From an uncultured Anaerolineaceae bacterium (GTDB lineage: Bacteria; Chloroflexota; Anaerolineae; Anaerolineales; Villigracilaceae), in contig CAZGFR010000004.1 in NCBI GenBank assembly GCA_964524485.1, forward strand, positions 3,036-67,035: DNA of 64,000 nucleotides, written 5' to 3'. The notes under the pieces are model-generated. The model was not told the DNA's origin and did not search any database. It worked only from the letters and a program-made list of their open reading frames with translations. The translations under genes were made by a program, and so were the position numbers. Below are positions 29,827-49,100 of the stretch, piece after piece (position 1 is the stretch's first letter; every line of letters starts with the position of its first letter).

Positions 29827-32667
29827 CTAGGATTCGGGCCGCTCCGAAACGGATTGCGGCAGGACTTCGATGCGGTTGACGCCCAGGGCGTTCTTCAACT
29901 CCTGCATCGCCAGACGGATCATTTCGTTCGGGTCATTGGTCGAGCGGATGGTCGAGGTAATCTCAGATACCTTGCGTTCACGTTCGGCGCGTCGCAGGGA
30001 GTCCTGAAGCAGGCGGGCATTTTCGAGCGCCAGCGCCAGGCGGTCGGACGCGGTCTGCACCAGCGCCACCTCCTCCTTGGCCCACTGACGGTCCTTCTGC
30101 AGCGACATCACGTTCAGCACGCCGAGCAGTTCGCCGCGCAATTTAACGGGCATGACGATGGTCGGCTGGTGCGCGTCCCCGCCGTCCGTCACAACCACTT
30201 CGCCGCGTTCCAGCGCCTGCTGCATGCTCTCGCTTTGGACGGGCTTGTTGAGCAGCCTGCCGCCGCTGATCGACTGATAATAGCCGACGCTGGCGCTCTG
30301 CTGGGCGAAGCCCTTCCACTCCTGCCGCAGATACTGGCTGTACATGCTCTGCACTTCTTCGAGGGCCTGCTGGGTGCGTTCGAACAGGCGCGCGTTCTCG
30401 ATGGCGATGGCCACCTGGTCGGCCAGGGTGCTCAACACGTTGGCGTCGTTGTCGGTGAACGCCCCGTGCTTTTCGCTTTGCACGTCCAGCACGCCGATCA
30501 CGTCGCCGCGCACAATCAGCGGCAGGGCCATTTCGGAGTGGGTGTTAGGCAGGTCTGGGTTGTTGAAGAAAGCCGAGTCCGCGCCCACGTCGAGGGCGAT
30601 GCGCGGCTTGCCCGTGTTGGCCACATACCCCACGATGCCCGTCTGGCCCACCTGCAAGCGGTGACCGCGCGCCAGCATGCGCTGTCCGCCTTCGCTGTTG
30701 GCGGCCTGCAGCACGGCATAGGTGCGGGTCGGGTCGAGCAGGAAGATGCCTGTGTGATAGAAGCCGAATTTCTCGCTCACGGTACGGGCGATGAGCGGGA
30801 GCAGCACGTCGATACGCTGTTCAGCGGAGATGGCGCGTGAGACTTCGCTGATGGTCTCCAGGTTCCTGGCGCGCTCTTCACTTTGCAGGCGCGCGATCTC
30901 CAGGTCGTAGGTTCGCTCGGCCACGCTCCGTTCCAGTCCTCTCAGCGTATCGGAAAGCTGGCTCACGGTTTGATCCATCACACTGGCAAGCGTGCCGAGC
31001 TCGTCGGAGCGCTGGATGGCGTTCCGCACCGTGAGGTCGCCTGCCTGGATGCGCTCAGCGGTTGCCGTCAGGGACTGGACCGGGGCGACCAGCATCCTTG
31101 CGGATAGATTGGCCAGAAAACCTGCGCCAACGAAAAGGATCACAAGCAACGCCGCGCCCGCGCCCAATTGGCCGAACAAAGGCTGGAGGAAAGTCTCGCC
31201 GGGTTCCACGGCAATCGCCGTCCACGGTTTGAGCTGCGTGCGCGTCAGGCTGGCCTGGTCGTCACCGGGGGAGGTGTCGTTCGTTTCGAGTTCCACAGAG
31301 AAGAAATTCGAATCAGGATTTGCCAGGCCCGCTTCCATGTCGGGCAGGTTCAGCAGGAAATTCTCCTGTGGGCCAGGCGGGAGCCTCTGGGCATCCTGGA
31401 GGTCGGCGATCTGTGTCGCGCTGAACGGGGTGGATGTCTTGTAAAGCTTGTTCTCGTTCTTCTCGTCTGCGAGGATGGTGTGGTTTTCGTCCATCAGGAG
31501 AATGTAGGCGGTGGTATCGGCCGTATTGCCCTTCACAATTAGATTCTGCAGGACGGCCGCATCATATTCGACCACCAGCACCCCCAGCAGGGTGCCGTCC
31601 TCGTCCGAGATGGGGGCGCTGAAATACAGTTCCGCCGCACCCGTCTGCGGGTCGAACAGCACGTCCGAGGCGTAGGCCTGTCGATTCGAGATGACGGACC
31701 GATAGAAGGGGGCATTCGACTCATCGGTGGAGACGTGCGCCTGTTCCTCACTGCTGTCGAAGAGACTCTTGCCCTGGGCGTCGAGGACCAGATAGGTCTT
31801 GATCTCCCTTTGTGTCGAGCCCAGCGCCAGCAGCGTCCCCTGGAGTTCTTCGGCGGTTTCCTCTCCCTTGAGGAAGCCGATCACGCTGGGCAGGGTGGCA
31901 TTGGCCTGGATGGTGTTTAGATTATCCTGGAGGAAGGTGTCTATCTGGTGGGATGCCTGTTGCGCCTTATCCTGCAAACTCTGTCTGGATTTCTGGGTAA
32001 GGATATCCTGCGTGCTCAATAAAGCGGGGACGCCGATCATCAACACGGGCACGATCAACGTGATGAGGTAGGTTGTGTTGAGCTGGGTGCGCAACGACTT
32101 GAACTCGATCTGGGTGGTCAGGTGGATGCCGAAGAACAGCACCACCGCGCCGATGACGATGATGACACCCTGTTGGATCAAAGAGGCGATCGGAAGCCGC
32201 TCGGTGAGCTGCAGTCCATATTCGAAGATGAGGGTGGCGACGCTGAACATCCCGCCGATCACCAGGGCGAGTTGCACGCCGCGCGGCGGCAGCGCCTGCA
32301 GGGCAAAGATGGCCGTGAAGACTATCGCACCCAGAGCGAAAGTGATGCCCATCCCTGAAACGAAGAGCGTAGCAACGGTAAAGGTTAAGTTGACGATGCC
32401 GATGAATATCCAGGCCGTCAGGGAGGTATTCTTCGTCCGCCAGAGCAGGATCGTGCCTATCAGGATGGCCAGGCCCAGGATGGCATTGTCGATGAACAAC
32501 CCGTAATGCTGCCAGGCGCCGCCGCTCTGCCGTAACAGGCTGAGGTAGAACAGCTCGACCAGGATCACGGCGATCACGCCCGCCACACCGAAAGTCAGCA
32601 GGGTGCGATATTGGACGATTTGCTTGCTGGCTTGTCGTCGTTCTTGAGTGGGTTCAGAAGGTTGCAT
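29827..32667 (-). CDS. Receptor paralog R8: ~7 TM + dCache-like extracytoplasmic domain + TM + HAMP + GAF + GAF-like + C-terminal GAF-head stub; no output domain
   Basis: HAMP reads AERIQAGDLTVRNAIQRSDELGTLASVM. The signalling helix reads LERSVAERTYDLE. The GAF core reads KFGFYHTGIFLLD..GHRLQVGQTGIVGYVA..PDLPNTHSEMALPL..LADQVAIAIENARLF. A second module ends in RLALALENARLL. The terminal stub reads ERERKVSEITSTIRSTNDPNEMIRLAMQELKNALGVNRIEVL. Confidence 0.8.
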   Translation of the reverse strand: MQPSEPTQERRQASKQIVQYRTLLTFGVAGVIAVILVELFYLSLLRQSGGAWQHYGLFIDNAILGLAILIGTILLWRTKNTSLTAWIFIGIVNLTFTVATLFVSGMGITFALGAIVFTAIFALQALPPRGVQLALVIGGMFSVATLIFEYGLQLTERLPIASLIQQGVIIVIGAVVLFFGIHLTTQIEFKSLRTQLNTTYLITLIVPVLMIGVPALLSTQDILTQKSRQSLQDKAQQASHQIDTFLQDNLNTIQANATLPSVIGFLKGEETAEELQGTLLALGSTQREIKTYLVLDAQGKSLFDSSEEQAHVSTDESNAPFYRSVISNRQAYASDVLFDPQTGAAELYFSAPISDEDGTLLGVLVVEYDAAVLQNLIVKGNTADTTAYILLMDENHTILADEKNENKLYKTSTPFSATQIADLQDAQRLPPGPQENFLLNLPDMEAGLANPDSNFFSVELETNDTSPGDDQASLTRTQLKPWTAIAVEPGETFLQPLFGQLGAGAALLVILFVGAGFLANLSARMLVAPVQSLTATAERIQAGDLTVRNAIQRSDELGTLASVMDQTVSQLSDTLRGLERSVAERTYDLEIARLQSEERARNLETISEVSRAISAEQRIDVLLPLIARTVSEKFGFYHTGIFLLDPTRTYAVLQAANSEGGQRMLARGHRLQVGQTGIVGYVANTGKPRIALDVGADSAFFNNPDLPNTHSEMALPLIVRGDVIGVLDVQSEKHGAFTDNDANVLSTLADQVAIAIENARLFERTQQALEEVQSMYSQYLRQEWKGFAQQSASVGYYQSISGGRLLNKPVQSESMQQALERGEVVVTDGGDAHQPTIVMPVKLRGELLGVLNVMSLQKDRQWAKEEVALVQTASDRLALALENARLLQDSLRRAERERKVSEITSTIRSTNDPNEMIRLAMQELKNALGVNRIEVLPQSVSERPES

Positions 32668-32690
32668 AGATTTCTCTCACACTAAAGGCA

Positions 32691-35564
32691 TCACTTGCGG
32701 ACAGGTTGAGGCTTGACACCGTCGACCGTCGCCGACGGGGAAGGCTGTACCTGGACCAACACTTCGGTGTCGCCGCCCAGCGCCTGGCTCAACTCCTGCG
32801 CGGTGATCTGCAGGATCGACTCGAGGCGGATCGAAGAACCGATCTTGCCCGAAAGGTCGGCCGAGAGGCGTTCCAGTTCGGCGCGGCGGGTCGACTCTTC
32901 GAACAGGCGGGCGTTCTCCAGCGCGAGCGCCATTCGGTCGCTGACGGCCTGCACCAGGCTGATCTCGTCCACATTCCATTCGTGACCTTGTTGGCTCGGC
33001 TGGACGTTGATGACACCGATCACCTGGCCGCGGAGTTTGACCGGCATGGACAGGGACGCGGTCTGGCCGTCGTGCGCGGGGTTGAGGACCACCTCACCCC
33101 GTTCCAACGCGGCTCTCGCCTCGGCTGAATATTCCTCGGACTTCAGCCTGGCCCCGCCGCTCAGGGTTTGCTGGTATCCCAGGCCCTGGCTGCGGCGGGC
33201 AAAGCCCGTCCACTCCTGGCTGATGTACTGACGGTACACCGACTGCACCTCGGCCAGGGCGGCTTCCGTCTGGCTGAACAGGCGGGCGTTGTCGATGGCG
33301 ATGGCCACCTGGTCTGCCAGCACGGTGAGGGTGCTCAGGTTTTCGACCGTGAACACGCCGGAGTCGGTGCTTTGCATATCCAGCACGCCGATGGTCTGTC
33401 CGCGTGCGTTGAGGGGCAGCGCAATCTCGGAACGGGTATTGGGCAGATCGGGATTGTTGAAGAAAACGGCGTCAGCACCCACGTCGAGGGCGATGCGCGG
33501 TTGACCCGTCTGGGCCACGTAGCCCACGATGCCGGTCTGTCCCACTGCCAGGCTGTGACCGTGCGCCAGCATCCGCTTACCGCCTTCACTGCTGGCTGCC
33601 TGGAGGATGGCGAACTGTCGGTTGGAGTCGAGCAGGAAGATGCCCGTGTGATAGTAGCCGAATTTTTCGGTGATGAGGTTCGTGATGAGCGGCAGCAGCG
33701 ATTCGAGCCGCTGCTCGCCCGAGATGATGCGCGCCACGTCGCTAATGACCTCGAGGTCATGCGCGCGCGCCTCGCTTTGACGGCGGGCCACATCGAGGTC
33801 GTTAGTGCGTTCGGCCACGCGGGTTTCGAGGCTTTGCAGGGTCAGTTTCACCTGGTCGGACATGCGGTTGAACGTGGCTGCCAGTTCGCCGATCTCATCG
33901 TCCGCGCTGACGACAGCTTGGGCGGTCAGGTCGCCGGCGGCAAGTTTTTCAGCGGTGCTCTTCAAGGACAGCACCGGCTGCGAAATGATCCGCGCTGCAT
34001 ACAGGGACGAGAGTACGGCCAGCAGGATCAGCGCGATCGAGCCGAGCACGATGGCGCGGTTCTGGATGCGGACCGGGGCGTATAGCACGGATTCAGGCTG
34101 GCTGGCGATGGCCACCCACTTGACCGATTTCATCCGCGCGCCGGTCGTCAGAGCGCTGACCCCGGGCTTGGGCAGGTCGGCAGTGAAGTAGGGCGTTTGT
34201 TCGAGAGTCTGGATGCCCGCTACGACCGCGTCCGAACTGGCGATGGTTTCGTCGGCGGGACCGGGCGGAAGCAGTCCCTGCAATTGCAGGTTGGCCATGT
34301 CGATCGGCCCGTAGTTGCTGAAGGATTTGTACAACTCGTTGCGCGGACCGGTATAGGCCACGCGCACATAGGTACGGGCGTCCACCAGGGCCACGAGTTG
34401 TTGCTGTTCCTCATGGCCCGCCAACAGGGAGCGCATCATGTTCTGGAAGACGGCTGCGTTATATTCCGCGCGCAGGATGCCGATCACATCGCCGGAGAGG
34501 TTGCGGACCGGCGTGCTGAAATGGATATTGGCCTTGTTGCCGCTCTCGAAGACCAGGGTGGAGACGTACGGCAGGCCTGAGTTGAAGGGGACCTTGAAAT
34601 AGTCGAACCCGCTCTCGTCACGGCCGATCTGGTTCTCTGCCGTATCGAGGATATCCCGTCCGCTGACGTCGAGCAGGGCATACGAGTAGATGAACAGCAG
34701 GTCCTTGCGGACGAAGGTGTTCAGCGTGCGCAGGGCGTTGGCCTCCTCCGGGCTGCCCGCGCGCTGGAAGGTGGGCAGGGTCATGTACGCGATGATGGTG
34801 GGCTGTTGGGCTTCCGTGCGCAGGCTGTCCAATTGGGCGATGATGTACGCATCGGCCTTGTCGGCGGCGTTGGCGGCCAGGTCCGAGAGGTTCAACTTGG
34901 CCTGTGACTCCTGGGCCTGACGGCCCGCCAGGCTGCCAGCCGTGCCGAAGAGGAGCAGCGGGACCAGCGCTACGAGGGTGAAGGCGATCAGGATCTTTGC
35001 CTGCAGATTGAAGGAACTGAAATTCCTGAGGAGGAGGACGGTGAACACGATGGCCAGGACCGCTGAGATCGGGGTGCTGATCGTCGTGTTGGTTTGGATG
35101 CCAAACCCGACCGGCAGGAACAGGTCCGCGAGGATGGCCAGGGTGCCCAGGACGGCGGAGAAGGCAGCCGCCCGGACCACGTAGTTGGTCGGAAGCGTGG
35201 CGGTCGCGATGGTGGTCGTCATGACGATAAGCGCCAGGACCGGCGCAACCACCTGCCCGGGCAGCAGGTAGGGCATGAGCAGAATGGACATCACCAACAC
35301 AGTGATTAGGATGCCCATGCCGCCGCCCACCTGCCCGCGGTAGCTCAGGAGCAGGCTGACCAGGCCTGTCAGTGCCAGGAAACCGGCCAGGAAGACGCCG
35401 GCATAGATATCGCTCCCCAGGGTCTGCACGTTGAGCAAGAGGACTGCCGTGACGACGGTCAGGATCGCTGCTGTCAGACCGCTGATCCAGAGCGCGTTTC
35501 GGCGCCGCCTGTCTGTGAGGGCGTCGGAAGTGGGGGAGGGTGGTTGCGTTCGAGCGGGCATCAT
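32691..35564 (-). CDS. Receptor paralog R7: ~8 TM + dCache-like domain + TM + HAMP + GAF + GAF-like + GAF-head stub; no output domain
   Basis: It has the same architecture as R8. HAMP reads AEKLAAGDLTAQAVVSADDEIGELAATF, followed by LETRVAERTNDLD. The GAF core reads KFGYYHTGIFLLD..LADQVAIAIDNARLF. The stub reads RAELERLSADLSGKIGSSIRLESILQITAQELSQALGGDTEVLVQV. Confidence 0.8.
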   Translation of the reverse strand: MMPARTQPPSPTSDALTDRRRRNALWISGLTAAILTVVTAVLLLNVQTLGSDIYAGVFLAGFLALTGLVSLLLSYRGQVGGGMGILITVLVMSILLMPYLLPGQVVAPVLALIVMTTTIATATLPTNYVVRAAAFSAVLGTLAILADLFLPVGFGIQTNTTISTPISAVLAIVFTVLLLRNFSSFNLQAKILIAFTLVALVPLLLFGTAGSLAGRQAQESQAKLNLSDLAANAADKADAYIIAQLDSLRTEAQQPTIIAYMTLPTFQRAGSPEEANALRTLNTFVRKDLLFIYSYALLDVSGRDILDTAENQIGRDESGFDYFKVPFNSGLPYVSTLVFESGNKANIHFSTPVRNLSGDVIGILRAEYNAAVFQNMMRSLLAGHEEQQQLVALVDARTYVRVAYTGPRNELYKSFSNYGPIDMANLQLQGLLPPGPADETIASSDAVVAGIQTLEQTPYFTADLPKPGVSALTTGARMKSVKWVAIASQPESVLYAPVRIQNRAIVLGSIALILLAVLSSLYAARIISQPVLSLKSTAEKLAAGDLTAQAVVSADDEIGELAATFNRMSDQVKLTLQSLETRVAERTNDLDVARRQSEARAHDLEVISDVARIISGEQRLESLLPLITNLITEKFGYYHTGIFLLDSNRQFAILQAASSEGGKRMLAHGHSLAVGQTGIVGYVAQTGQPRIALDVGADAVFFNNPDLPNTRSEIALPLNARGQTIGVLDMQSTDSGVFTVENLSTLTVLADQVAIAIDNARLFSQTEAALAEVQSVYRQYISQEWTGFARRSQGLGYQQTLSGGARLKSEEYSAEARAALERGEVVLNPAHDGQTASLSMPVKLRGQVIGVINVQPSQQGHEWNVDEISLVQAVSDRMALALENARLFEESTRRAELERLSADLSGKIGSSIRLESILQITAQELSQALGGDTEVLVQVQPSPSATVDGVKPQPVRK

Positions 35565-35587
35565 GGTAGTTGTCTCATTTCGCGGCC

Positions 35588-36562
35588 CTATCTCAGGTAG
35601 GACTCGTCGAGCATGGCGTTGAAGTCGGGATTTGAGGTCAGGGTTCCAACCCGCACAAGGAAGTCAGTGTTGGTGGAGGCGATTTGCTGAATGGGGGAGG
35701 CGCCTCCGTCTGCACCGACCCGGTACAGGTCGAGATTGTTTTCGCGGTTGAACAGGGTGACGGGCGAGTTGAATTCGATGGTGCCCTGTGGAACCTTCAA
35801 GTATTCGGCGATGATCTGGCGGGCCGCCTGGGGATTCTGGCGGCGGAATTCCACGGCTTCGAACCAGGCGCGCAGGAAGGCGCGGATCTGGTCGGGCTGC
35901 GATTCAACCACCTCGCGGCGGAATACGATCACATCCGGGAAGAGCATCGAGGTCTCATTGGACTTGAACAGGATGCGGTTCCCTTTGGACAGGGCCTCAC
36001 CGGTGTAGGGTTCCCACGAAAAGCCTGCGTCGATGTCGACGCCCAACGCGGCGGGAACCTCGGCCGGGTCGTAATCGAACAGGGAGACGTCCGACAGTTT
36101 CAGACCGCCTGTTTCGAGCATCTGGACGACGAACAGTTCGTACGTCGAACCGATCGGCACGCCGATGCGCTTTCCTTTCAAATCCGGGACGCGCGTGATA
36201 TCGGGGCTGGCAATGACGGTGTTGGGACCGCCGTCGTCATAGACGGCTGGGATGACGATATCCGCGTGGTGGGAGGCGTTCAGCGCGTCGCCGATGTTCA
36301 TCAGCGCCCCGTCGAGCTGTCCGGCAGACAGGTCTGCCAGGCTTTTGTAATACACATCGTAATAGACGGGTTCCACGTCCACGCCGTACTTTTCGAACAG
36401 GCCGCGTTCCTTGGCGATGATCAGGGTGTAGTCACCCCACCAGGAAGTGAACTCGACCCGCAGGGGGGCGCGGGTGGCGGGCGCAGGTTCAAACGCGCCG
36501 CATGAGGTCAGCAGGCTGAGCACCACGGCGATTTGCAGGAATTTCCACAAGCGCGGGAACAT
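35588..36562 (-). CDS. Orphan lipoprotein substrate-binding protein, NMT1/THI5 (SsuA/TauA/NrtA-like) family
   Basis: It has a lipobox (LSLLTSCGA) and SBP-type sequence (LRVEFTSWWGDYTLIIAKERGLFEKYGVDVE..LKGKRIGVPIGSTYELF). No permease or ATPase genes are adjacent. Its ATG overlaps the R6 stop by 1 nt. Confidence 0.75.
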   Translation of the reverse strand: MFPRLWKFLQIAVVLSLLTSCGAFEPAPATRAPLRVEFTSWWGDYTLIIAKERGLFEKYGVDVEPVYYDVYYKSLADLSAGQLDGALMNIGDALNASHHADIVIPAVYDDGGPNTVIASPDITRVPDLKGKRIGVPIGSTYELFVVQMLETGGLKLSDVSLFDYDPAEVPAALGVDIDAGFSWEPYTGEALSKGNRILFKSNETSMLFPDVIVFRREVVESQPDQIRAFLRAWFEAVEFRRQNPQAARQIIAEYLKVPQGTIEFNSPVTLFNRENNLDLYRVGADGGASPIQQIASTNTDFLVRVGTLTSNPDFNAMLDESYLR

Positions 36563-38307
36563 TACTCGCCTCCTTGTGCGCCGGGCATCTCGGCCGCCTC
36601 GAGTTCAGCGGGTTGGATCTGCACCGTGACGTCCGAGCCGCCCAGGGCGCGGCTCAACTCTTCGGCCGCTGTCTGGATGATGGCCTCTATGCGGATGGTG
36701 GAACTGAGTTTGCCGGTGATCTCGGCGGTTACGCGCTCGACGTCCGCGCGGTGTTGGGCGGCGCGCAGCAGGGTGGAGGTCTCGAGCGCCAGCGAAAGGC
36801 GGTCGGCCACCGCCTCGGCGATATCGACATCGTCGGGATTCAAGGGTTTGTCCTGGGGGACGCGCAGGTTGATAATGCCGATGACCTGTTCGCGCAGGCG
36901 GATGGGCACAGCCAACGTGTTGGCCTGCTGGACGGTCTGATTGTTGCGCAGGGCTTGTTGGATGGGTTCGCCTTCGAGCGGCTTCTCCAGCGGGCGGACA
37001 CCCGCTGCCGAGGTTCGGTATCCCATGGCGGCGGCAGCCGGACGCAGGATTCTCCACGCCTGGGTGATATACCCGCTGGTGGCGCGCTGGGCCTCATTGA
37101 GCAGAGCGCGCGCCTCTACGAAGGAGTTGGCGTTCTGGATGGCGATGGCCACCTGGTCGGCCAACGTGGTGAGCGCCTCCACATCTTCCTGCTTGAAGGC
37201 GTTCGGCTCGGTGCTTTGCACGTCCAGTACGCCGATCAGTTCGCGGCCCACCCTCAGCGGCAGGGCCAACTCGGAGCGAGTGTTGGGCAGGTCGGGATTA
37301 TTGAAGAAGACCACGTCTTCGCCCGCGTTCATGGCGATGCGCGGATTGCCCGAACCCGCCACGTACCCCACGATGCCCACCTGCCCGACCTTGAGCCTGT
37401 GTCCGCGCGCGAGCATTTTCTGCCCGCCCTCGGTGTTGGCGGCTTTCAGGACGGCATACTCATGGGCATCATCCAACAGAAAAATGCCTGTGTGATAAAA
37501 GCCAAAATGCTGGCTGATGACATGCGTGATGCGCGGCAGGAGCGCGTCCAATTCCTGGACGGATGCGATGACCCGCGCCACCTGGGTGATGGCTTCGAAT
37601 TGGACGGCGCGTCGCTCGCTGTTGAGGCGGGCGGACTCCAGGTCGGCGGTGCGTTCCTGGATGCGCTCCTCCAGGTGCAGGCGGTTCTGCTCCAGTTCCC
37701 GCAGGGCCAGACGGGTCTGGCGGGCCTCCTGGGTGATCTCGCTTTCCAGGCGCTGCAGGCCGAGCACGATGACTCCGCTGAAAACCAGGAACATGCCCGC
37801 GGTACTGAGCCAGTTCAACACGTTCAGGTTGCCCGCCACGGCCACTGCCACGGGGGCGTAACCGTTCAGGTACACGATTCCCCCGAAGAGCATGGCCGAC
37901 AGGGAGAGGGCGGTGGCGGTCCAGCCCGCGCGGGACGAGAGCATCAGGGTGGCGATCACAACCGTGGCATAAAAGAACAGGGTCGCATCGCTGAGGATAC
38001 CGAAATAGGTTAATTCATTGATGGCCACGCCGAACACGGCCACCAACAGCACCAGTACGCGTCCCGTGTAGGGGAACGGCAGGATGGTGATGACCAGCGC
38101 CAGCAGGTAGCCCACGGCGAATACGATGGTGGTGACGGGATTTTGCGCGGCAAGGATGCCCGCGACCAGCGCAAAGAAACCGAACACCAGCCCGACTCCC
38201 AACATGGGGCGGATAAAACCCGCACGCCAGTTTCGCACTGCCGATTCGGCTCCGTGCTGGATTGGACGCAGCAGGCTGGTCAGGGTAGGATCGTTGTACT
38301 TGTTCAT
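36562..38307 (-). CDS. Receptor paralog R6: multi-TM (no large loop) + coiled coil + GAF + GAF-like + GAF-head stub; no HAMP, no output domain
   Basis: About 6 TM segments are followed by LEERIQERTADLE. The GAF core reads HFGFYHTGIFLLD..LADQVAIAIQNANSF. The stub reads RADVERVTAEITGKLSSTIRIEAIIQTAAEELSRALGGSDVTVQI. Confidence 0.8.
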   Translation of the reverse strand: MNKYNDPTLTSLLRPIQHGAESAVRNWRAGFIRPMLGVGLVFGFFALVAGILAAQNPVTTIVFAVGYLLALVITILPFPYTGRVLVLLVAVFGVAINELTYFGILSDATLFFYATVVIATLMLSSRAGWTATALSLSAMLFGGIVYLNGYAPVAVAVAGNLNVLNWLSTAGMFLVFSGVIVLGLQRLESEITQEARQTRLALRELEQNRLHLEERIQERTADLESARLNSERRAVQFEAITQVARVIASVQELDALLPRITHVISQHFGFYHTGIFLLDDAHEYAVLKAANTEGGQKMLARGHRLKVGQVGIVGYVAGSGNPRIAMNAGEDVVFFNNPDLPNTRSELALPLRVGRELIGVLDVQSTEPNAFKQEDVEALTTLADQVAIAIQNANSFVEARALLNEAQRATSGYITQAWRILRPAAAAMGYRTSAAGVRPLEKPLEGEPIQQALRNNQTVQQANTLAVPIRLREQVIGIINLRVPQDKPLNPDDVDIAEAVADRLSLALETSTLLRAAQHRADVERVTAEITGKLSSTIRIEAIIQTAAEELSRALGGSDVTVQIQPAELEAAEMPGAQGGE

Positions 38308-40493: not shown

Positions 40494-42514
40494 GGCTGGC
40501 CCTCGCCTGTTTCCTCAACGCCGCTCTCGGGCAGGTTGATAGTGATGAAGGTGCGGCTGGCGTTGAAGGCCTTGCCGAGTTCGCGGATGGTGTTTTGCAG
40601 GATGCCGTCCATGGCTGTGGAACTGCGAATCTGGTTGACGATGTTGGCTGTCTGGCGTTCGGTGGCGGCGCGGAGTTGGGCTTCCTGGTACAGGCGGGCG
40701 CTTTCGAGCGTGCCGCTCACCTGGTCGGCCAGGGTGCCCACCACGTTGATCTCTTCCGTCGACCAGGGTGGGGAATTTCTGGGCTTGCTCAGACGCACCG
40801 AGCCGATGTTCTGTCCGCGCACCTTCAACGGGACCAGGAGCGTCAACCCGTTATCGGTGGTGACAGGCTGCTCGATCACGGACTGGTTTTTGACGTTGCC
40901 GCGTGTGATGCGGACGAAGTTGCCCTGCGAGGTGCTCATGAAGCCGAGCGTGTCGGTCAACTTCTGCATCTGCTGCCAGGCGGTCTGACTGACGTCGCCG
41001 TAGGCGCGGCGGACGGTCTCGAGCGCGTTTTGGTTTTCCTCGAACAGGCGGGCGTTCTCGATGGCTACAGCCACCTGGTCGGCCAGCACTTGCAGCACGT
41101 TGATGTCGTCCTGCGAGAAGGCGTTCGACTCCGTGCTTTGCACGTCCAGCGCGCCCAGGATCTCTCCACCCGCCACCAGCGGCAGGGCCATCTCGGAGCG
41201 GGTGTTGGGCAGGTCGGGGTTGTCGAAGAAGGTGGCGTCCGTGCCCACGTCCAGCGCAATGCGCGGATTGCCCGTCCCTGTGACGTAGCCCACGATGCCC
41301 ACCTCACCAACCTTCAGGCGGTGACCGCGGGTGAGCATGCGCTGTCCGCCCGTGCTGTTGGCGGCGCGCAGGACGGCAAACTCCTTGCGGTCGTCGAGAA
41401 GGAAGATGCCTGTGTGGTAGAAGCCGAAGCGTTCGCTGATCAACTGGGTCACCTGCGCAAGCAGGGGATTCAGGTCGCGCAGTTTGGCGGCCACGCTGCC
41501 GATCTCGGCGGCGGTCTGGATCTGCACGGCGCGTCGTTCCAGGTCGCGGGTACGGTCGGCCACACGGCTTTCCAATTGGCCCACCATGCCGCTTAGTTCG
41601 TTCGCCATACTGTTGAAGGCCTGTCCCAGTTTGCCGATCTCGTCGTCACGTTCGAGGGTCACGCGCGCCGACAGGTTGCCGCGGCTGATCTCGGTGGCAG
41701 TCTCGGCCACCTGGGTCAATGGTCTGGCCAGCGCGCGGGCGATCACCACGCCCAGGATGCTTCCGAAGACCGTGACCGCTGCGCCCAGGACGATGGTGGC
41801 CAGCCGCATGCTCTCGATCAACTCGTAGAGGGCGAAGGGCGCCGTCGAGAGGATGCCCTCATCGGTCAGTGTATTGCGGATGATGGTGATGCTCATCGCG
41901 CCGAGCAGCAGCGCCACGATCAGGGTGATGGTGGCGATGGCGTTGGCGATCTTCGGTCCGAGGCCGATACTGCGCGCCTGGAAGATGAGCAGCAGGATCT
42001 GGAAGAAGAACGCGAACGCCGCGAGGAATCCAGCGGCGCGGATGATGTCGGTGGGGGTGGCCAGCCGCGTGTAGAAATTGCCCGCGAACGCGTCGAAGAC
42101 CACAATCAGGCTGCCTGAGATATATCCGAAGAGCAGGGCCAGGTCTGCCCGGTTGAGCGGCAGGGTCAGCGTGCTGATGATCGAGACCAGGATGGCCGCC
42201 AGGATGCCGAACGGCAGGCCGAGGTCTTGCCGCAACGCCGCGCGGAGTGCGGCAGTGGCAATGATCCCGATCAGCAGCATCCAGACCGACTGTTCCACCT
42301 GTCCGCGCAGCGCGCGGAGCAGGCCGAGGATGGAGGCGACCATCACGCCCAGGATGCCCGCTATTTCCAACGCCATCGTCAGGTTGAAAGCCTTGAGGTT
42401 CGAGATGAGCGGGGAGAGATTGAGGAACGTGATGGCCAGGATCGCAATGGCGGAAAAGACCGCATTGCGTTGTTCGCGGCTCATGGCGGGAAAGGAGATT
42501 TCAGAAGTGCTCAT
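40490..42514 (-). CDS. Receptor paralog R4: multi-TM + HAMP + GAF + GAF-like + GAF-head stub; no output domain
   Basis: About 7 TM segments are followed by HAMP (SRGNLSARVTLERDDEIGKLGQAFNSM). The GAF core reads RFGFYHTGIFLLD..LADQVAVAIENARLF. The stub reads AATERQTANIVNQIRSSTAMDGILQNTIRELGKAFNASRTFITI. Confidence 0.8.
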   Translation of the reverse strand: MSTSEISFPAMSREQRNAVFSAIAILAITFLNLSPLISNLKAFNLTMALEIAGILGVMVASILGLLRALRGQVEQSVWMLLIGIIATAALRAALRQDLGLPFGILAAILVSIISTLTLPLNRADLALLFGYISGSLIVVFDAFAGNFYTRLATPTDIIRAAGFLAAFAFFFQILLLIFQARSIGLGPKIANAIATITLIVALLLGAMSITIIRNTLTDEGILSTAPFALYELIESMRLATIVLGAAVTVFGSILGVVIARALARPLTQVAETATEISRGNLSARVTLERDDEIGKLGQAFNSMANELSGMVGQLESRVADRTRDLERRAVQIQTAAEIGSVAAKLRDLNPLLAQVTQLISERFGFYHTGIFLLDDRKEFAVLRAANSTGGQRMLTRGHRLKVGEVGIVGYVTGTGNPRIALDVGTDATFFDNPDLPNTRSEMALPLVAGGEILGALDVQSTESNAFSQDDINVLQVLADQVAVAIENARLFEENQNALETVRRAYGDVSQTAWQQMQKLTDTLGFMSTSQGNFVRITRGNVKNQSVIEQPVTTDNGLTLLVPLKVRGQNIGSVRLSKPRNSPPWSTEEINVVGTLADQVSGTLESARLYQEAQLRAATERQTANIVNQIRSSTAMDGILQNTIRELGKAFNASRTFITINLPESGVEETGEGQP

Positions 42515-42515
42515 G

Positions 42516-44204
42516 TCAGTTCTGGCCCTTTAGCGCGCCGGGATGTTTCCCGTTCGGGTTCTCGTTCACCTCAGGTGCGGGTGGCGTGTTGAATCGCACT
42601 TCGGCCTCCGTCAGCCCGAAGGCATTGCGGAGTTCGTCGGCAGCGGTCTGGAGCACGGTCTCCATGTCCAGGGTTTGGCGGATGCGGTTGGACACGTTGG
42701 CGATCATTTGGTCGCGGGCGGCGTTCTTTTGGGTCTCCTCCAGCAGGCGGGAGGTGTCGAGCGCAAGCGCCACCTGGGCGGCGATCTCTGCCGCCAGTTC
42801 CTGCTCTCGTTTGTTCCAGGGAGGTGAGGTCTGTTTGCGGCGCAGGTTGATCACGCCGATTGCCTGTCCGCGCAGCTCGATGGGCACGCGCAGGGTCCAG
42901 CCGCTATCGTCGGGCAGGGACTCGCTGGCGCGTACATCGGTCAGCGGGCGGACGCCCAGGTGAGTGTACTGATATGCGGGGGCGCGGCGCTTGAGGTAGG
43001 TCACCCAGGCGTCGCGGGTCTGCAGGGCGGTGAGGGCCTGGAACTGGCCAATGATGGCCTCGCTCTCGGTGAACAGGCGGGTGTTCTCGATGGCGATGGC
43101 CAGTTGGTCGGCCACGGTACGCATGATCTCCACATCGTCTTCGCTGAAGGCGTTGACCTTTTCGGACTGGATGTCGAGCGCGCCGATCACATGTCCGCGT
43201 ACGATCAGGGGCAGGGCCATCTCGGAGTGGGTCAGCGGCAGGTGCGGATTGTCGAAGAAGACGGCGTCCGCGCCTGTGTCGAGGGCCACGCGCGGACGGG
43301 CGCGCGCGGTGACATAGCCGACGATGCCCGTCTGCCCGACGGTCAGGCGGTGGCCGAGGCTCAGCATCTGCCTGCCGCCTTCGGAAGAGGCGGCCTGGAG
43401 CACGGCAAATTGTTCCCTGTCGTCCAGCAGGAAGATACCGACGTGGTAGAAGCCGAACTGTTCGGCAATGTTGGATACCACGCCGTTCAACAGGGCTTGC
43501 AGGTCACGGACTTCGGCGATCCTGCGGGCCACCGACGAGGCGGCTTCGAGCTGGGTGGTCTTTTCGGCGATCTCGGTGGTGCGTTCTTCCACGCGCTTTT
43601 CGAGCAGGGAGCGTTCCTTCTCGAGCGCGTTCAGCGAGGAGCGGGCGTCGGCTTGGGCGTTCTCGAACTCGCGCTGGAGCAGAGCCAGGCCGATGATGGC
43701 GATGGCGTCCAGCATTAGCAAGGCCACAGCGCTGGTGAGCCAGATCTCCCAGGAGCCGATGATCAATTCCTTGTTGATGGGTTCGATCTGCCCGACGATC
43801 AGCATCCAGCCTGCCGCGGCAGTCGCTCCCAGTGAGATGATCGTGGCGACCACCGCCGCGCGGGTCGAGAGCAGCATGGCGGTGAACACGACCGTGGCGA
43901 ACAGGAACAGGCGTGAATCGCCCCAAATGCCCGTGTCGATCAACCCGACCGCACCCAGGGCGAAGGGAAGCAGGATGAAGATGCCCGCCCGCAGCACATA
44001 CGGAATGGGTGCAAACGTGATGACGATCAGCAGAGCGTAGGCCGCAAGGTTCACCAGCGGCGTGAAGGGATCGTTCCACGAACTGAGGGAGGGGATCAAT
44101 GCAAGGAAGGCAAAGACCAACGCGACGCGCAGGATGATGCGCAGGAAGTTCTCGCGCCAGGCCTGCAGGGTGTGGGAGGTATCTCGAATGGCATTCGTGG
44201 TCAT
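42516..44204 (-). CDS. Receptor paralog R3: multi-TM + coiled coil + GAF + GAF-like + GAF-head stub; no HAMP, no output domain
   Basis: About 6 TM segments are followed by LEKRVEERTTEIAE. The GAF core reads QFGFYHVGIFLLD..VADQLAIAIENTRLF. The stub reads AARDQMIANVSNRIRQTLDMETVLQTAADELRNAFGLTEAEVRF. Confidence 0.8.
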   Translation of the reverse strand: MTTNAIRDTSHTLQAWRENFLRIILRVALVFAFLALIPSLSSWNDPFTPLVNLAAYALLIVITFAPIPYVLRAGIFILLPFALGAVGLIDTGIWGDSRLFLFATVVFTAMLLSTRAAVVATIISLGATAAAGWMLIVGQIEPINKELIIGSWEIWLTSAVALLMLDAIAIIGLALLQREFENAQADARSSLNALEKERSLLEKRVEERTTEIAEKTTQLEAASSVARRIAEVRDLQALLNGVVSNIAEQFGFYHVGIFLLDDREQFAVLQAASSEGGRQMLSLGHRLTVGQTGIVGYVTARARPRVALDTGADAVFFDNPHLPLTHSEMALPLIVRGHVIGALDIQSEKVNAFSEDDVEIMRTVADQLAIAIENTRLFTESEAIIGQFQALTALQTRDAWVTYLKRRAPAYQYTHLGVRPLTDVRASESLPDDSGWTLRVPIELRGQAIGVINLRRKQTSPPWNKREQELAAEIAAQVALALDTSRLLEETQKNAARDQMIANVSNRIRQTLDMETVLQTAADELRNAFGLTEAEVRFNTPPAPEVNENPNGKHPGALKGQN

Positions 44205-44207
44205 GGG

Positions 44208-46124
44208 TTAGTCTGCCTTCAACTCGATGGTGACTTCGTCGGTGTCCAAGGCGCGGCCCATTTCCCTGGCGGCGGTCTGCATGATGCCGTCGATGGTGCT
44301 GGAGGACCAGATCTTGCCGGTGATCTCCGCCACCATGCGCTCGCGGCGGGCGGTGGACTGGCTGTCTTCCACCAGGCGTGCATTTTCTAACGCGAGCGCG
44401 GCTTGCGAAGCAATGGCTTCGATCATGCTTCTTTCTTCGGGAGTCCAGTCGTTGTCGCCCGTCAGGTTGATCTGACCGATGATCTGGTCACGCAACGACA
44501 ACGGGATATCGATCTGGCGCACTGTCTCGTGCGGCTCCACCTCGCCGTTTTCAAAGGAGAGGTTTGGTCGTTCGTCGGTGACGCGCTTCCAGGTATCAAG
44601 CAGGTACTGTTGCTGGATGGCGTGCATATCCTGCAGGTTCTGTCGAGCCTCCTGGAACAGGCGCGCGTTCTCGAGCGCGATGGCGATCTGGTTGGCCATG
44701 GTCTGAAGGGTCTCGATGTCCTCCGGGTCGAAGGCGCTATCCTTCGTCGATTGGGCGTCCAGCGCCCCGAGGACGCGGTCGCCCACGATAAGCGGGAGCG
44801 CGATCTCGGAGCGGGTGTACGGGAGCAGCGGATTGTCGAAGCGGACGTGGTTCCCGACGGTGTCCATCACCACCTGTGGCTGGCGCTCGCGGATGGCGGT
44901 CCCCACCATGTTCTTGCCATCCACTTCCAGGCGGTGCTTGTTCTCGCGCAACACGCGGCCTGCATCGCCGGTGGCGTTGCGGAGTTCGGCCCAGCGCTCG
45001 GAGGGGTCCAGCAGGAAGAGGGCCACGTAGTAGTAACCGAATTCCTCGGCGATCAAGTTCACGAGGCGTTCAGTCAGTTCGTTTGCGTCGAGGATGGCGC
45101 TGATGACGCGGCTGACCTGCACCGTGGCGCGCAATTGGGCGGTGCGTTCCTTGACCTGCGACTCGAGCGTTTCCTGAAGGGTGTTCAGACGCCCGGCCAT
45201 GTGGTTGAAGTAAATGGAGACTTCGCCGATTTCATCGGAGGCGATCACGTCCACGCGTTTGGTCAGGTCGCCTTGTTCCAATGCCTGCATGGCCTGGATC
45301 AGGTTGCGCATCGGGGTCAACAGGGTGCGCAGGATCAGGGCTGAGAGGGTCAATCCCAACACAAGGTTGATGGCGCTCGCCACGATTGACTGGACCTGGA
45401 AACTTCTCACCAAGTCTGCGCCGCCTGCTCCGCCGCTGGTTGCCAGGAGGACGTGATGATATCCGATCGGGCCCATCACCAGGATGCCGATGGCGATCAG
45501 CGTCAGCGCCGAACCGATGATCTTGTTTGTGAGACCGAACCCAACCACGTCCTTCAACTGGGCTTCGATGGTCTTGGGGATCAATACCACGCGGACCGGG
45601 CGCAGGAAATAATCGAGGATGTGTGAGGCGAGCGAAGCCCCGCCAAAGGAGGCCACCAGCCCGCCCATGATCCCGTACTGGAACTGCTCGGGCGTGACAC
45701 CGTGGTAGAAGTACAGGAACCCCAACAGCGGGATGGTCTCCCCGATCAACGCGACCAGGAAGGTGGTCAGGATGAAGCGCAGGGGCAGCGAGTTAACCTC
45801 CCGCCAGGCGGCGCTTTCGGTCTTGTCTCCGCTCGAAAGGGGTTTTCCCTGGCTCCACTGGGTCAATCGCAGGAAGGCGTTCTGGCTGGAGTAATACGTC
45901 CAGGCTGCCATGACGACATTTCCAATGGGGACCAGCACCCAGGTGATGCGGAACACCATCGAGATCTGGTCGGCGGTGAATTGGGCGTTGTTTTGCACGA
46001 AGTAGGTGGCCACAGCCGTGCTGACAAAGGCTATAAGCTGAACCACGAGCACCGTGACCGGCAGGTACCAGCCGCCCAGCCGCTTCAAAGCGTTTTGCAG
46101 GAAGGGTGCAAGGTCGAACTTCAT
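44208..46124 (-). CDS. Receptor paralog R2: ~6 TM + HAMP + GAF + GAF-like + GAF-head stub; no output domain
   Basis: HAMP reads LEQGDLTKRVDVIASDEIGEVSIYFNHM. The GAF core reads EFGYYYVALFLLD..MANQIAIALENARLF. The stub reads ARRERMVAEITGKIWSSSTIDGIMQTAAREMGRALDTDEVTIEL. Its start forms an ATGA overlap with R1. Confidence 0.8.
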   Translation of the reverse strand: MKFDLAPFLQNALKRLGGWYLPVTVLVVQLIAFVSTAVATYFVQNNAQFTADQISMVFRITWVLVPIGNVVMAAWTYYSSQNAFLRLTQWSQGKPLSSGDKTESAAWREVNSLPLRFILTTFLVALIGETIPLLGFLYFYHGVTPEQFQYGIMGGLVASFGGASLASHILDYFLRPVRVVLIPKTIEAQLKDVVGFGLTNKIIGSALTLIAIGILVMGPIGYHHVLLATSGGAGGADLVRSFQVQSIVASAINLVLGLTLSALILRTLLTPMRNLIQAMQALEQGDLTKRVDVIASDEIGEVSIYFNHMAGRLNTLQETLESQVKERTAQLRATVQVSRVISAILDANELTERLVNLIAEEFGYYYVALFLLDPSERWAELRNATGDAGRVLRENKHRLEVDGKNMVGTAIRERQPQVVMDTVGNHVRFDNPLLPYTRSEIALPLIVGDRVLGALDAQSTKDSAFDPEDIETLQTMANQIAIALENARLFQEARQNLQDMHAIQQQYLLDTWKRVTDERPNLSFENGEVEPHETVRQIDIPLSLRDQIIGQINLTGDNDWTPEERSMIEAIASQAALALENARLVEDSQSTARRERMVAEITGKIWSSSTIDGIMQTAAREMGRALDTDEVTIELKAD

Positions 46125-49100
46125 TTCGATCCCTCCCCATTGCCGTTGTGTGGGATGGCGGGGTTGATGGTGATGCGCGCATGCCGCGCTCCCACAACCT
46201 TCATCAGTTCGTTGCCCGTGGTCTCCAGGATGGTCTGGATGTCGGTGGAGCGGCGGATCTTGCTGGTCACCTCGAAGAGTTGGCGCTCGCGTTCGGCCTG
46301 GGTGCGGATCTGCTCCAGCAGGCGGGCGTTCGCGATGACGGCCGCCAGGCTGCCGCCCAGCGTGCCGAGCATTTCCTCGTCACCTTCGCTGTATGCGGCC
46401 TGCTGTTCGCTTTCCACGTTCAGCACGCCCAGCATTTCATTGCGGTAAATCAGAGGAACGGCCAGTTCGGAGCGCGTGTTGGAACTGACCTGGATGTAGC
46501 GCGGCTCGTCGGCGATGTCGTCGATGCGCAGGGGACGGCGGTGCGCCGCCACCCAGCCTGTCACACCGCTGCCCACCGGGATCCGAATCTGGGCTACTTC
46601 TTCCGAGTAGCCGACCGAGGCCTTGACCTGCAATTCCTTGCGGTCGCGGTCGAGCAGGAGGATCATCACACGGTCGCCGCCGAGCGTCACCTGGAGTCCG
46701 TTCACCGCGCTGGTAAGGGCTTCTTCCAGGGTGGTCCCGGAGGCCGCCGTGGTGGTGATGTGATGCAGCAGGCGGTGCTGGGAGAGGTGTTCCTGCGTTT
46801 CGGAGAACAGCTCGCTGTTTGCCACCGCCACCGCCATCTGGTCGGCGAGGATTTGCAGGGTGCGCAGGTTGTCGTCGTTGAAGGCGAAGATCTGCGTGCT
46901 TTGCACGTCCAGCACGCCCAGGATGCGGTCACTGACCTTGAGCGGGATGGCAGCCTCGCTCCTCGTCTCGGGCAGGAGCGGATTGGCATAATAAGTAGGA
47001 TCCTTGGCGGCGTCGTTGATGACCAGCATCTCGCCGCGCCCGGAGACGTATCCCACGATGGATTTGGAGCCGACGCCGAGTTTGTGCCCGGCGCGTTTGA
47101 GTTGCTGCCCTGCCTCACCGGTCGCCTCGCGGATGACGGCGAATTCCCCGGGCAGGTCGAGCAGGAACACGGACGCGTGATAGAAGTTGAAGCGTTCGCG
47201 GATCAGGTTGACGGCCTTGGCCAGCAGTTCGTCCACATTGAAGGAGCGGCTGACCTCGCGGGCGATTTCCGCCGCGGTCTCGAGCTGCACAGCGCGCTCG
47301 CGGCTGTCATCCAGCAGGCGCACGTTATAGATCACGCCCGCCACCTGCGACGAGAGGGCCGAGATGAATCTCAGGTTATTCTCGGTGAAAGCGCCTTCGT
47401 TCTCGGTGTCCTGCACGATCAAGGCGCCGATGGCCTCCCCGTTGAGGATCATGGGTGCGCCCATCCACGATCTGGGTGGACGGCCGATGATCTTGGCGCC
47501 CATGGCCGCCGCGCGTTTCTCGGTGTTTTCCACCAGCAGGAGTGGCTTCTTGGAGTGGATCAGAATCGAGGTCAGGCCCTCGCCCAGGGGGAACGGGTCG
47601 ATCTGGGTGATGCGTCCCTCGTCGTAGGCATACGGGATGCGGATCGTGTTGGACTTCGAGTCGTACAGCGCCACGATGAAACTGTGGTCGCCGATGATGT
47701 TCTGGACCTGTTTATGCAGGGTGGTGAACAGATCGCTGGCGTCGGTCGCCGTGGACACGATCTGGCCGATGGAGGTCAGCGCATTCAATTCGCGCATGCG
47801 CTCGTCGGTGGTGTCGGCGGCCTGGATCTTTTCAAGTGTGATCGAGGTCAGGTCGGCCAGGCTGATGTAGGGCTGCAAGGCCGAGCGGTTCAACTTGACG
47901 GCACGCGAACCGATCATCAGCAGGGCGTCCAGACTTTCACCGCGCATGATCGGCAGGTAGGCCACGGATTGGAAGCCCAGCGCGGTCGGAATGGCGGTCA
48001 GCGCGTTGGTGGTGGGGCTGGCCGTCAGGTCGTAGATGGATTCACCTGCCAGTTGGCGGACGGTCTCTGCGGGAGTCAATTTGATGTCGCGCGGCAGGGT
48101 GTTGACGGAGGGATTGCGCGTGTCGTTGATGAAATCCAGTTCGAGCTGATTGTTGCGCGGACGGAAGATACCCGTTGCGTAGGGTGCATCCCTGAGCGCC
48201 GCGCTGACGATGCTCAACGCCTCTGTCTCGCTCTGCGCCTGGGCGATCTGGCGGCTGGAGCGGTACAGGCGCTCGAGTTCCTGGAAGTTGATCTGCGTCG
48301 ATTCGACCAGGCTGGCGTTCTGGATGGCGGCCGCGATCTGGTTGGCCAGGGTTTGCAGCACCACGATGGCTTCCGAGTCGAAGGCGTTCGGCTCGGTGCT
48401 TTGTACGTCGAGCACACCGTAGACCAGGTCGCCCGAGGAGATCGGGACAGCGGCTTCGGCGCGCGTGTTGACCAGCAGGGTGTTCTTGAAGTGGAGCGGA
48501 TCCTCGACCGTGTCGGATGCGACGCGCGGCTGGTTATTGGCCGACACCCAGCCGACCAGGGAGGTCGAACCGACTTCGAGGCTGTGTCCACGCTCGAGCA
48601 GTTCGCGCGCCACCGGGCTGTAGGCCGCGCGGATGACCGCGTATTTGCCTGCGCGATCGAGCATGAATATGGACGAGTGATAATACCCGAAGCGTTCGAC
48701 GATTAGGCGGGTGGTGGTGTTCATCAATTCGGGCAGGTCAGTGGCGGCGGTGATGCCCTTGGCTACTTCGCCCGCCGTGCGGATCTGGCGTGTGCGCTCC
48801 GCGACCTTTTGTTCAAGGGAACGCGTCAGGCTGCTCAACTCGTCGGCCATCTGGTTGAACGAGTGGGCCAGCTGGCCGATCTCGTCCTGCCGTTTGACCT
48901 CGGCCCGCTGGTCGAGGTCACCTTCGGCGAAGCGGCGCGTGACCCCCGTCAGTAAAATGATGGGATTGATCATGCGGTTGATGCCGCCGCTGATGGCGAT
49001 GGCCGCCAGGATCATTGCGCCCAGGAAGATGCCGATGGTGAACGGCGCCAGGCTGTTGACCCGGTCAAGGACCACATCTCTCTGAATTTCAAGCACAACC

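Follow-up and report, generated by a model that had tools for sequence, protein, structure and literature searches.

A truncated GAF head at the C-termini of eight Anaerolineales receptors and its candidate complement on a neighbouring hybrid histidine kinase

Genome censuses contain many sensor proteins that possess input domains but lack a recognisable output. How such proteins could pass on what they sense is the question raised by a locus of an uncultured Anaerolineaceae bacterium (Chloroflexota), located in a stretch of 64,000 nucleotides of contig CAZGFR010000004.1 (hereafter the window; GC content about 62%), the closest relatives of which are found in uncultured Anaerolineales genomes. 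The minus strand of the window encodes eight membrane receptors, R1 to R8, in which Pfam analysis revealed only dCache, MASE11, HAMP and GAF domains, and no HisKA, HATPase, REC or MCPsignal domain. The receptors are therefore neither methyl-accepting chemotaxis proteins (MCPs), the MCPsignal hairpin being absent, nor sensor histidine kinases, which are defined by HisKA together with HATPase_c; the latter pair is present in a soluble hybrid kinase, here called kinase Y, encoded two genes downstream of the array. Each receptor terminates in a short segment homologous to the beginning of a GAF domain (the stub), and kinase Y carries near its N-terminus a segment homologous to the end of a GAF domain of the same class. 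Judging from sequence comparisons and structure models, we give a probability of about one half to the possibility that the two segments are halves of a split GAF domain, which would act as plug and socket linking the receptors to the kinase.

The GAF-head stub of the receptors

All eight receptors can be aligned with each other over their last 54-75 residues, which contain a helix-helix-strand segment of about 50-60 amino acids (aa) with the consensus RRAxRERxxxEITxKIxSSxDxxxILQTAxxELxxALGxxEVxIxx, after which a short low-complexity acidic tail follows. The hidden Markov model (HMM) of the stub, comprising 59 columns, scores 72-84 bits on the eight C-termini, as opposed to 15-21 bits on the internal GAF-GAF junctions of R1. 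Profile-profile comparison (hhalign) with the window's own GAF domains places the stub on GAF columns 7-53 of 182 (P=9e-5, probability 59%). Among PDB sequences the stub profile matches residues 132-182 of 6OAP (E=6e-13), both the GAF head (10-54) and the PHY head (198-251) of 8W26 (E=3e-12), and about ten further GAF heads of cyanobacteriochromes (CBCRs) and phytochromes, including 6BHN (3-42), 2LB5 (10-54) and 6XHG (2-41); every one of these matches stops at the end of strand β1. The profile comparisons thus identify the stub as the α1-α2-β1 N-terminal third of a GAF domain of the phytochrome/CBCR class, which differs from the class of the receptors' own FGFYH-type GAF1. The original prediction that all eight receptors end in an alignable GAF head is borne out by these analyses, and its coordinates essentially coincide with ours, which begin right behind the helix motif ENARL and extend to the final codon.

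The stub alone gives no Pfam GAF match even at E≤10 (PF01590, PF13185, PF13492) and nothing above the cut-off in NCBIfam; its homology becomes visible only by profile-profile comparison and by search of PDB sequences. As to membership in the GAF family, the homology of the head is there, while a gathering-score match over the whole fold of about 130-150 aa is not: the receptor chain ends 1-54 aa past β1, in the low-complexity tail, and the central strands with the pocket as well as α5 are absent from the stub. Nor is the stub a plain extension of a coiled coil, as helix 1 is followed by a second helix and by a conserved strand with alternating hydrophobic residues. According to the AlphaFold2 (AF2) models, in R8 helix 1 extends α5 of the preceding module, helix 2 occupies aa 913-928, the strand RIEVLP corresponds to aa 932-937 (29857-29874), and the tail comes after it.

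Conservation of the stub was assessed for R7 and R8 by comparison with their orthologs in three orthologous clusters (L001, L002 and L068), using sequence identity and the ratio of nonsynonymous to synonymous substitution rates (dN/dS, ω). The stub is 80-96% identical to the orthologous ones in the case of R8 (ω 0.07-0.20) and 80-86% identical in the case of R7 (ω 0.08-0.22). For GAF1 of the two receptors the identity is 79-85% (ω 0.16-0.22), for the core of the compact GAF 37-69%, and for the sensor region 44-56%. The tail past the stub retains only 17-38% identity, with ω mostly close to 1 or higher (0.57-1.6 over all comparisons), from which neutral evolution of the tail can be deduced. By the same measures the stub is under purifying selection, the strongest or nearly the strongest within these proteins and as tight as that on GAF1 or tighter. 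Such a low ratio right beside a neutrally evolving tail indicates a conserved functional element without signs of decay, in agreement with the original view that function is the likelier reading.

The stub is by no means confined to this window. In 79 genome loci, 287 open reading frames (ORFs) organised in same-strand tandem arrays terminate in it, and 284 of the 301 stub matches with a downstream stop codon lie no more than 40 residues from that stop (median 9), which substantiates the earlier claim that the chain terminates where the rest of a GAF domain should follow. With metagenomes included, the stub terminates 456 receptor ORFs in 159 Anaerolineales/Chloroflexota loci; HisKA/HATPase or REC was detected in none of these ORFs, and like R1-R8 they do not qualify as sensor histidine kinases. 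In nine database representatives the domains are limited to sensors (dCache, MASE11, periplasmic-binding, HAMP) and GAFs. A search of 1.84 billion representative sequences with the stub profile yielded 13,544 proteins at E≤1e-3, of which 6,034 also pass E≤1e-10. Among the best 150 representatives, nearly all matches of at least 55 bits either fall in the last 65 aa or so of the protein or are internal copies after which a tail half comes in cis; the exception, P0155, has its match 118 aa before the end of an ORF that is probably mis-extended, and ordinary internal GAF junctions in this set score only 10-48 bits. An apparent internal stub in locus L054 turned out to be an artefact of a masked N-run. 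Except for a few contigs that were probably mis-binned, the 79 genome loci all belong to Chloroflexota. Contigs with a cluster of the Anaerolineales type (L076, P0282 and P0270) are labelled Propionivibrio, Bacteroidota or Binatia, probably due to binning errors in the source metagenome-assembled genomes. No description of the element was found in the literature on MASE11, on truncated, partial or split GAF domains, and on GAF/ParA systems of Anaerolineae.

The headless half-GAF of kinase Y

Kinase Y begins with a basic peptide, which about 40 orthologs share in the form M[PS]KKKxxxKRLDxLF. The true start of the protein, at 29060, is conserved and overlaps the end of the upstream ParA-like gene by 38 nucleotides (nt). 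By analogy, the peptide resembles the N-terminal peptides that engage ParA-type ATPases, or else a membrane-binding amphipathic segment. It is followed by a low-complexity linker, which comprises 50-100 residues in the orthologs and is predicted to be disordered, and then by three strands and α5 of a GAF domain with no α1-α2-β1 ahead of them. The consensus of this half-GAF in the kinases is (M)SLAFQxGQNNWATLQVxDExxxRxWSQDEQLLVKQVADQLSLALENARLFQE. Compared with the GAF domains of the window by hhalign, it covers columns 123-180 of 182 (probability 95.6%, P=1.2e-8), and in the PDB it matches the GAF tails of 8W26 (144-232), 6XHG (125-178), 6BHN (117-175), 2LB5 (144-200) and 6OAP (264-310), that is, of the same phytochrome and CBCR entries whose heads are matched by the stub. 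Stub and kinase half together make up a GAF domain minus its ligand-binding middle; the region of the bilin pocket with the conserved Cys, characteristic of phytochromes and CBCRs, is absent from both. In 39 kinases possessing the N-terminal peptide the first GAF-like element is the half-GAF, and the stub HMM detects no head ahead of it.

The two halves co-occur strictly. In the receptor-centred genome loci, wherever the flank reaches past the array, the receptors are followed by the ParA-like gene and then by a kinase with the half-GAF N-terminus. The reciprocal search, starting from the kinase N-terminus, retrieved 80 metagenome loci, and all 64 of those having at least 1.8 kb of upstream sequence possess, upstream and on the same strand, a receptor ending in the stub as well as a ParA-like gene. 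In most genome loci the ParA-like gene lies between the last receptor and the kinase; the constancy of this ATPase suggests, as far as gene content can tell, a role in the spatial organisation of a receptor-kinase assembly.

Rare proteins carry both halves in one chain. In P0061, P0081, P0059, P0306 and P0149 a head is followed by a loop of about 13-45 aa and a tail, and the stub-plus-kinase-half profile spans each of them as one collinear match; the minimal α-α-β-β-β-α GAF is consequently a natural arrangement. In some relatives from outside these clusters (P0061, P0067, P0071, P0081, P0083, P0119 and P0158) a unit of stub, short loop, two strands and α5 is repeated and the chain nevertheless terminates in a further stub, which means that a GAF without the ligand-binding middle exists as a single-chain tandem repeat.

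The AF2 model of the C-terminal 186 residues of R8 (alignment of 40 sequences; predicted local distance difference test, pLDDT, 85) opens with an N-terminal helix, after which come five strands and one short helix; the next element is one helix of 47 residues (104-150), formed by α5 of the preceding module running straight on into stub helix 1. Stub helix 2 folds back, the terminal segment is unpaired, and the stub is not packed on the preceding module. By Foldseek, the core resembles GAF domains, the small C-terminal GAF of SpoVT among them. The module that precedes the stub in R8 is accordingly modelled as a compact GAF that is complete, has five strands and begins with a helix of its own, its head being present; in R1 its place is taken by a canonical GAF of full length, which Pfam matches over positions 2-135 of 136. 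The original prediction had described this module as headless, and in that respect it does not hold.

A second model was made of an artificial chimera, in which the C-terminal 189 residues of R8 were fused to the first 149 residues of kinase Y via their natural tails (unpaired block alignment of 53 rows; mean pLDDT 81). The strand RIEVLP, which is coil with a pLDDT of about 79 in the isolated model, becomes a strand with a pLDDT of 90, and the pLDDT of the stub helices rises from 76-87 to 93-94. The kinase part is modelled as three strands and a long helix (pLDDT 78-91), the connector of 80 residues being disordered. For the isolated model Foldseek returned single GAF domains, with one match at E≤1e-3, while for the chimera there were 28 such matches, to tandem-GAF and GAF-PHY structures (PDE2A, PDE5A, PDE6, Cph2, 8W26) over 320-350 aligned columns. 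The feature typical of tandem GAFs, a continuous helix from α5 into α1, is predicted in both models (104-150 in the isolated one, 107-151 in the chimera); a second complete GAF in the same polypeptide is not found, as the chain stops after β1. The chimera model shows compatibility of the stub with the kinase half, which is short of binding. A structure in which the stub merely continues a coiled coil, without GAF-like packing, had been named beforehand as an outcome that would refute the original prediction. Taken alone, the isolated model gives this outcome, with helix 1 continuing α5 and the strand unpaired; GAF-like packing of the stub appears in the AF2 models only when the N-terminus of the kinase is supplied.

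Possible roles of the stub

Both halves are homologous to parts of one GAF class, conserved, strictly co-occurring and structurally compatible. Physical contact between the receptor stub and the kinase half, and signal transfer through it, are what we infer, and a mechanism can be proposed as follows. In receptors with neither an enzymatic nor a DNA-binding domain the stub is the sole candidate for an output element. Its helix 1 prolongs the helix that closes the preceding GAF, which recalls the signalling wires of tandem GAFs. The matching last third, consisting of strands and α5 and headless, is carried by the kinase two genes downstream on a disordered tether. Head and tail could then assemble in trans into a minimal GAF-like domain devoid of the ligand-binding middle, and a continuous helix-GAF-helix path from receptor to kinase would thereby be rebuilt. 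Eight different sensors would feed one kinase, or compete for it. Among the mechanisms originally suggested, docking or complementation is thus the best supported, with the difference that the partner proposed here is the half-GAF of the kinase and not the preceding module.

Several observations speak against a split GAF. AF2 may be prone to joining GAF heads and GAF tails of whatever origin, and the modelled chain was artificial and its alignment unpaired. The paralogous stubs within one genome share only 29-37% identity, so that a single shared socket on the kinase would have to tolerate this variety. In a minority of the orthologous kinases (those of loci L047, L048, L063 and L042) a PAS domain or a very long linker is inserted between the N-terminal peptide and the half-GAF, which means that the socket has no fixed place with respect to the N-terminus. 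The best 120 matches of a search with the head-plus-kinase-tail profile comprise only receptor C-termini and the rare single-chain head-loop-tail units, with no receptor-kinase fusion among them. In 110 locus pairs the mutual information between stub and kinase-half columns did not exceed that of a control region, although the top scores came from that more variable control region and the stub, nearly invariant among orthologs, is too invariant for the test. Finally, receptors containing HAMP and GAF domains are normally parallel dimers, which makes homodimeric use of the stub plausible as well.

The last point leads to an alternative that we regard as rather unlikely, namely that the stub is a homodimerisation or capping element: the hairpins of two receptors would pair into a four-helix bundle similar to a chemoreceptor tip or to DHp, the terminal strands would pair with each other, and output would proceed via the bundle surface or not at all. 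The isolated model, with its 47-residue helix and back-folded second helix, is what such a bundle would call for, and no second protein is needed. This explanation, however, accounts neither for the headless tail on the adjoining kinase, which is of the same GAF class and complements the stub exactly, and its co-occurrence in 64 of 64 loci, nor for the tail half that directly follows the internal stubs of single-chain proteins; besides, the isolated model leaves the strand unpaired and gives it lower confidence, although contacts within a dimer are beyond the reach of a monomer model.

It is improbable that the stub or its acidic tail docks some other partner, for instance the ParA/MinD-like ATPase, which would cluster or position the receptors, the half-GAF serving another purpose. 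The ParA-like gene does invariably stand between the last receptor and the kinase, and ParA-like ATPases organise chemoreceptor arrays in other bacteria. Against this, the ParA fold holds nothing complementary to a GAF head, the tail past the stub is unconstrained (ω about 1), and the basic N-terminal peptide of the kinase would, to judge by known ParA partners, be the more typical ParA-interacting element.

Still less probable is completion in cis, the circular permutation put forward originally, in which the stub folds back onto the GAF-like module preceding it. In R2-R8 this module is indeed a shortened GAF, of which Pfam strongly matches only the C-terminal part; however, the R8 model (pLDDT 85) and its Foldseek matches make it a complete compact GAF with its own helix, stub helix 1 runs straight off it with the strand left unpaired, and the stub of R1 follows a full canonical GAF. 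Completeness of the module in R8 and its canonical form in R1 led us to reject this reading as unlikely.

As for a functionless remnant of a lost terminal GAF, its likelihood is close to nil: the fold is incomplete and escapes Pfam and NCBIfam, but decay is refuted by the strongest or near-strongest purifying selection beside a neutral tail and by the retention of the stub, which terminates 456 ORFs from 159 loci and recurs in thousands of database clusters.

The operon and its relation to known systems

The receptor genes belong to a group of 13 tightly packed genes on the minus strand (23695-50014), with overlaps of 4 nt at R1/R2, R4/R5 and R5/R6, an overlap of 1 nt between R6 and the binding-protein gene, and gaps not exceeding 23 nt. 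The co-directional genes probably constitute one translationally coupled operon of about 26 kb (Table 1).

Table 1. Features of the operon, all on the minus strand; positions are those of the window
Feature	Coordinates	Strand	Description	Basis
R1	46121-50014	-	receptor ORF	ORF call
R2	44208-46124	-	receptor ORF	ORF call
R3	42516-44204	-	receptor ORF	ORF call
R4	40490-42514	-	receptor ORF	ORF call
R5	38304-40493	-	receptor ORF	ORF call
R6	36562-38307	-	receptor ORF	ORF call
R7	32691-35564	-	receptor ORF	ORF call
R8	29827-32667	-	receptor ORF	ORF call
Receptor array R1-R8	29827-50014	-	eight receptors without output domain	Pfam
R1 stub	46124-46318	-	aa 1233-1297, directly after full canonical GAF (Pfam 1094-1227)	alignment, HMM (72.6 bits)
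R2 stub	44211-44372	-	aa 585-638	alignment, HMM
R3 stub	42519-42743	-	aa 488-562, low-complexity tail included	alignment, HMM
R4 stub	40493-40690	-	aa 609-674	alignment, HMM
R5 stub	38307-38477	-	aa 673-729	alignment, HMM
R6 stub	36565-36768	-	aa 514-581	alignment, HMM
R7 stub	32694-32903	-	aa 888-957	alignment, HMM, ortholog comparison
R8 stub	29830-30009	-	aa 887-946	alignment, HMM, AF2 models, ortholog comparison
Binding protein	35588-36562	-	NMT1/THI5-like periplasmic binding protein, within the receptor array	Pfam
ParA/MinD-like ATPase	29023-29820	-	between last receptor and kinase Y	Pfam AAA_31/CbiA, NCBIfam, conserved position
Kinase Y	25380-29060	-	soluble hybrid histidine kinase: half-GAF, PAS, GAF, PAS, GAF, HisKA, HATPase, REC, REC	Pfam
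Basic peptide of kinase Y	28995-29060	-	N-terminal, MPKKKQKIDKRIDTLFDGIQPE (also given as MPKKKQKIDKRIDTLF)	ortholog conservation
Linker of kinase Y	28839-28994	-	low-complexity, aa 23-74	AF2 pLDDT 38-62; length and sequence variable among orthologs
Half-GAF of kinase Y	28617-28838	-	headless, aa 75-148: three strands and α5	hhalign, PDB search, AF2
PLP-REC protein	23695-25365	-	threonine-synthase-like pyridoxal-phosphate (PLP) enzyme fused to C-terminal receiver domain	Pfam, NCBIfam, synteny

The order of domains in the receptors is sensor, HAMP, GAF, compact GAF and stub. The N-terminal sensors are dCache_1, dCache_3, MASE11 or multi-pass transmembrane regions. HAMP is present in six of the eight, being absent from the MASE11 receptors R3 and R6, and each receptor has one canonical GAF, except R1 with four. 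The gene of the NMT1/THI5-like binding protein lies just upstream of the R7-type dCache receptor, a placement repeated in several related loci, and its product may deliver a ligand to the adjoining receptor. The PLP-REC gene is located 3' of the kinase in many related loci, and in receptor-centred ones it is often the next gene after it; from its domain composition, the threonine-synthase-like protein is an unusual candidate response regulator with enzymatic output. A second kinase encoded in the window (20215-21807) has a complete GAF and no bearing on the stub.

Several known systems share features with the one described here. The GAF domains of phytochromes and CBCRs (6OAP, 8W26, 6BHN, 2LB5, 6XHG) have heads similar to the stub, with E down to 6e-13, and tails similar to the kinase half; here, however, the middle 60-70 residues, which form the bilin or ligand pocket and the chromophore-binding region, are absent, and the parts reside on separate polypeptides. 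With tandem-GAF and GAF-PHY proteins (PDE2A, PDE5A, PDE6, Cph2, CyaB-type) the receptors share the long helix from α5 into α1, and the chimera is similar to them over 320-350 columns, but the known GAFs are complete and belong to one chain, whereas the second GAF here would be minimal and composed of receptor and kinase parts. Chemosensory arrays (MCPs, CheA/CheW, ParC/PpfA) are alike in having many varied output-less sensors, most of them with HAMP, one soluble kinase and a ParA-like gene. In contrast to them, the present locus has no MCP signalling domain, CheA or CheW, and has a hybrid kinase of the HisKA type instead; the proposed coupler is a GAF fragment, and not the helical-hairpin tip that binds CheW or P5.

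In the three-component systems DcuS-DctA, BceS-BceAB and NreA-NreB, sensing and kinase functions are likewise divided between separate, associating proteins, but these employ complete domains or transmembrane contacts, and we know of no complex of an accessory sensor with a histidine kinase in which a split domain is completed between the partners. Donor-strand complementation in chaperone-usher pili, where an incomplete fold is finished by a segment of another protein, bears a likeness to the split GAF, although its fold and function are unrelated; completion of a fold in trans is, to our knowledge, not known in bacterial signal transduction.

As a sequence feature the stub is a variant of the GAF theme; if the assembly in trans is real, it would represent a new mode of receptor-kinase coupling. 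On this basis one may tentatively envisage in Anaerolineales a new coupling system, in which head-bearing sensors, up to at least eight in number, would be served by one tethered, tail-bearing hybrid kinase, with the ParA-like ATPase and the basic peptide organising the assembly. Such a system, if true, would be a functional analogue of the chemosensory array without any shared parts. The missing link of output-less receptors may in this case be visible in the sequence, as a half-domain at the end of the receptor and its complement at the start of the kinase, and the idea of a split GAF would supply a rule by which the kinase partners of receptors could be predicted from Chloroflexota genomes. 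Should the halves indeed assemble, they would constitute a new wiring of many receptors to one histidine kinase and a natural case of domain complementation in signalling, which could also offer synthetic biology a compact modular connector.

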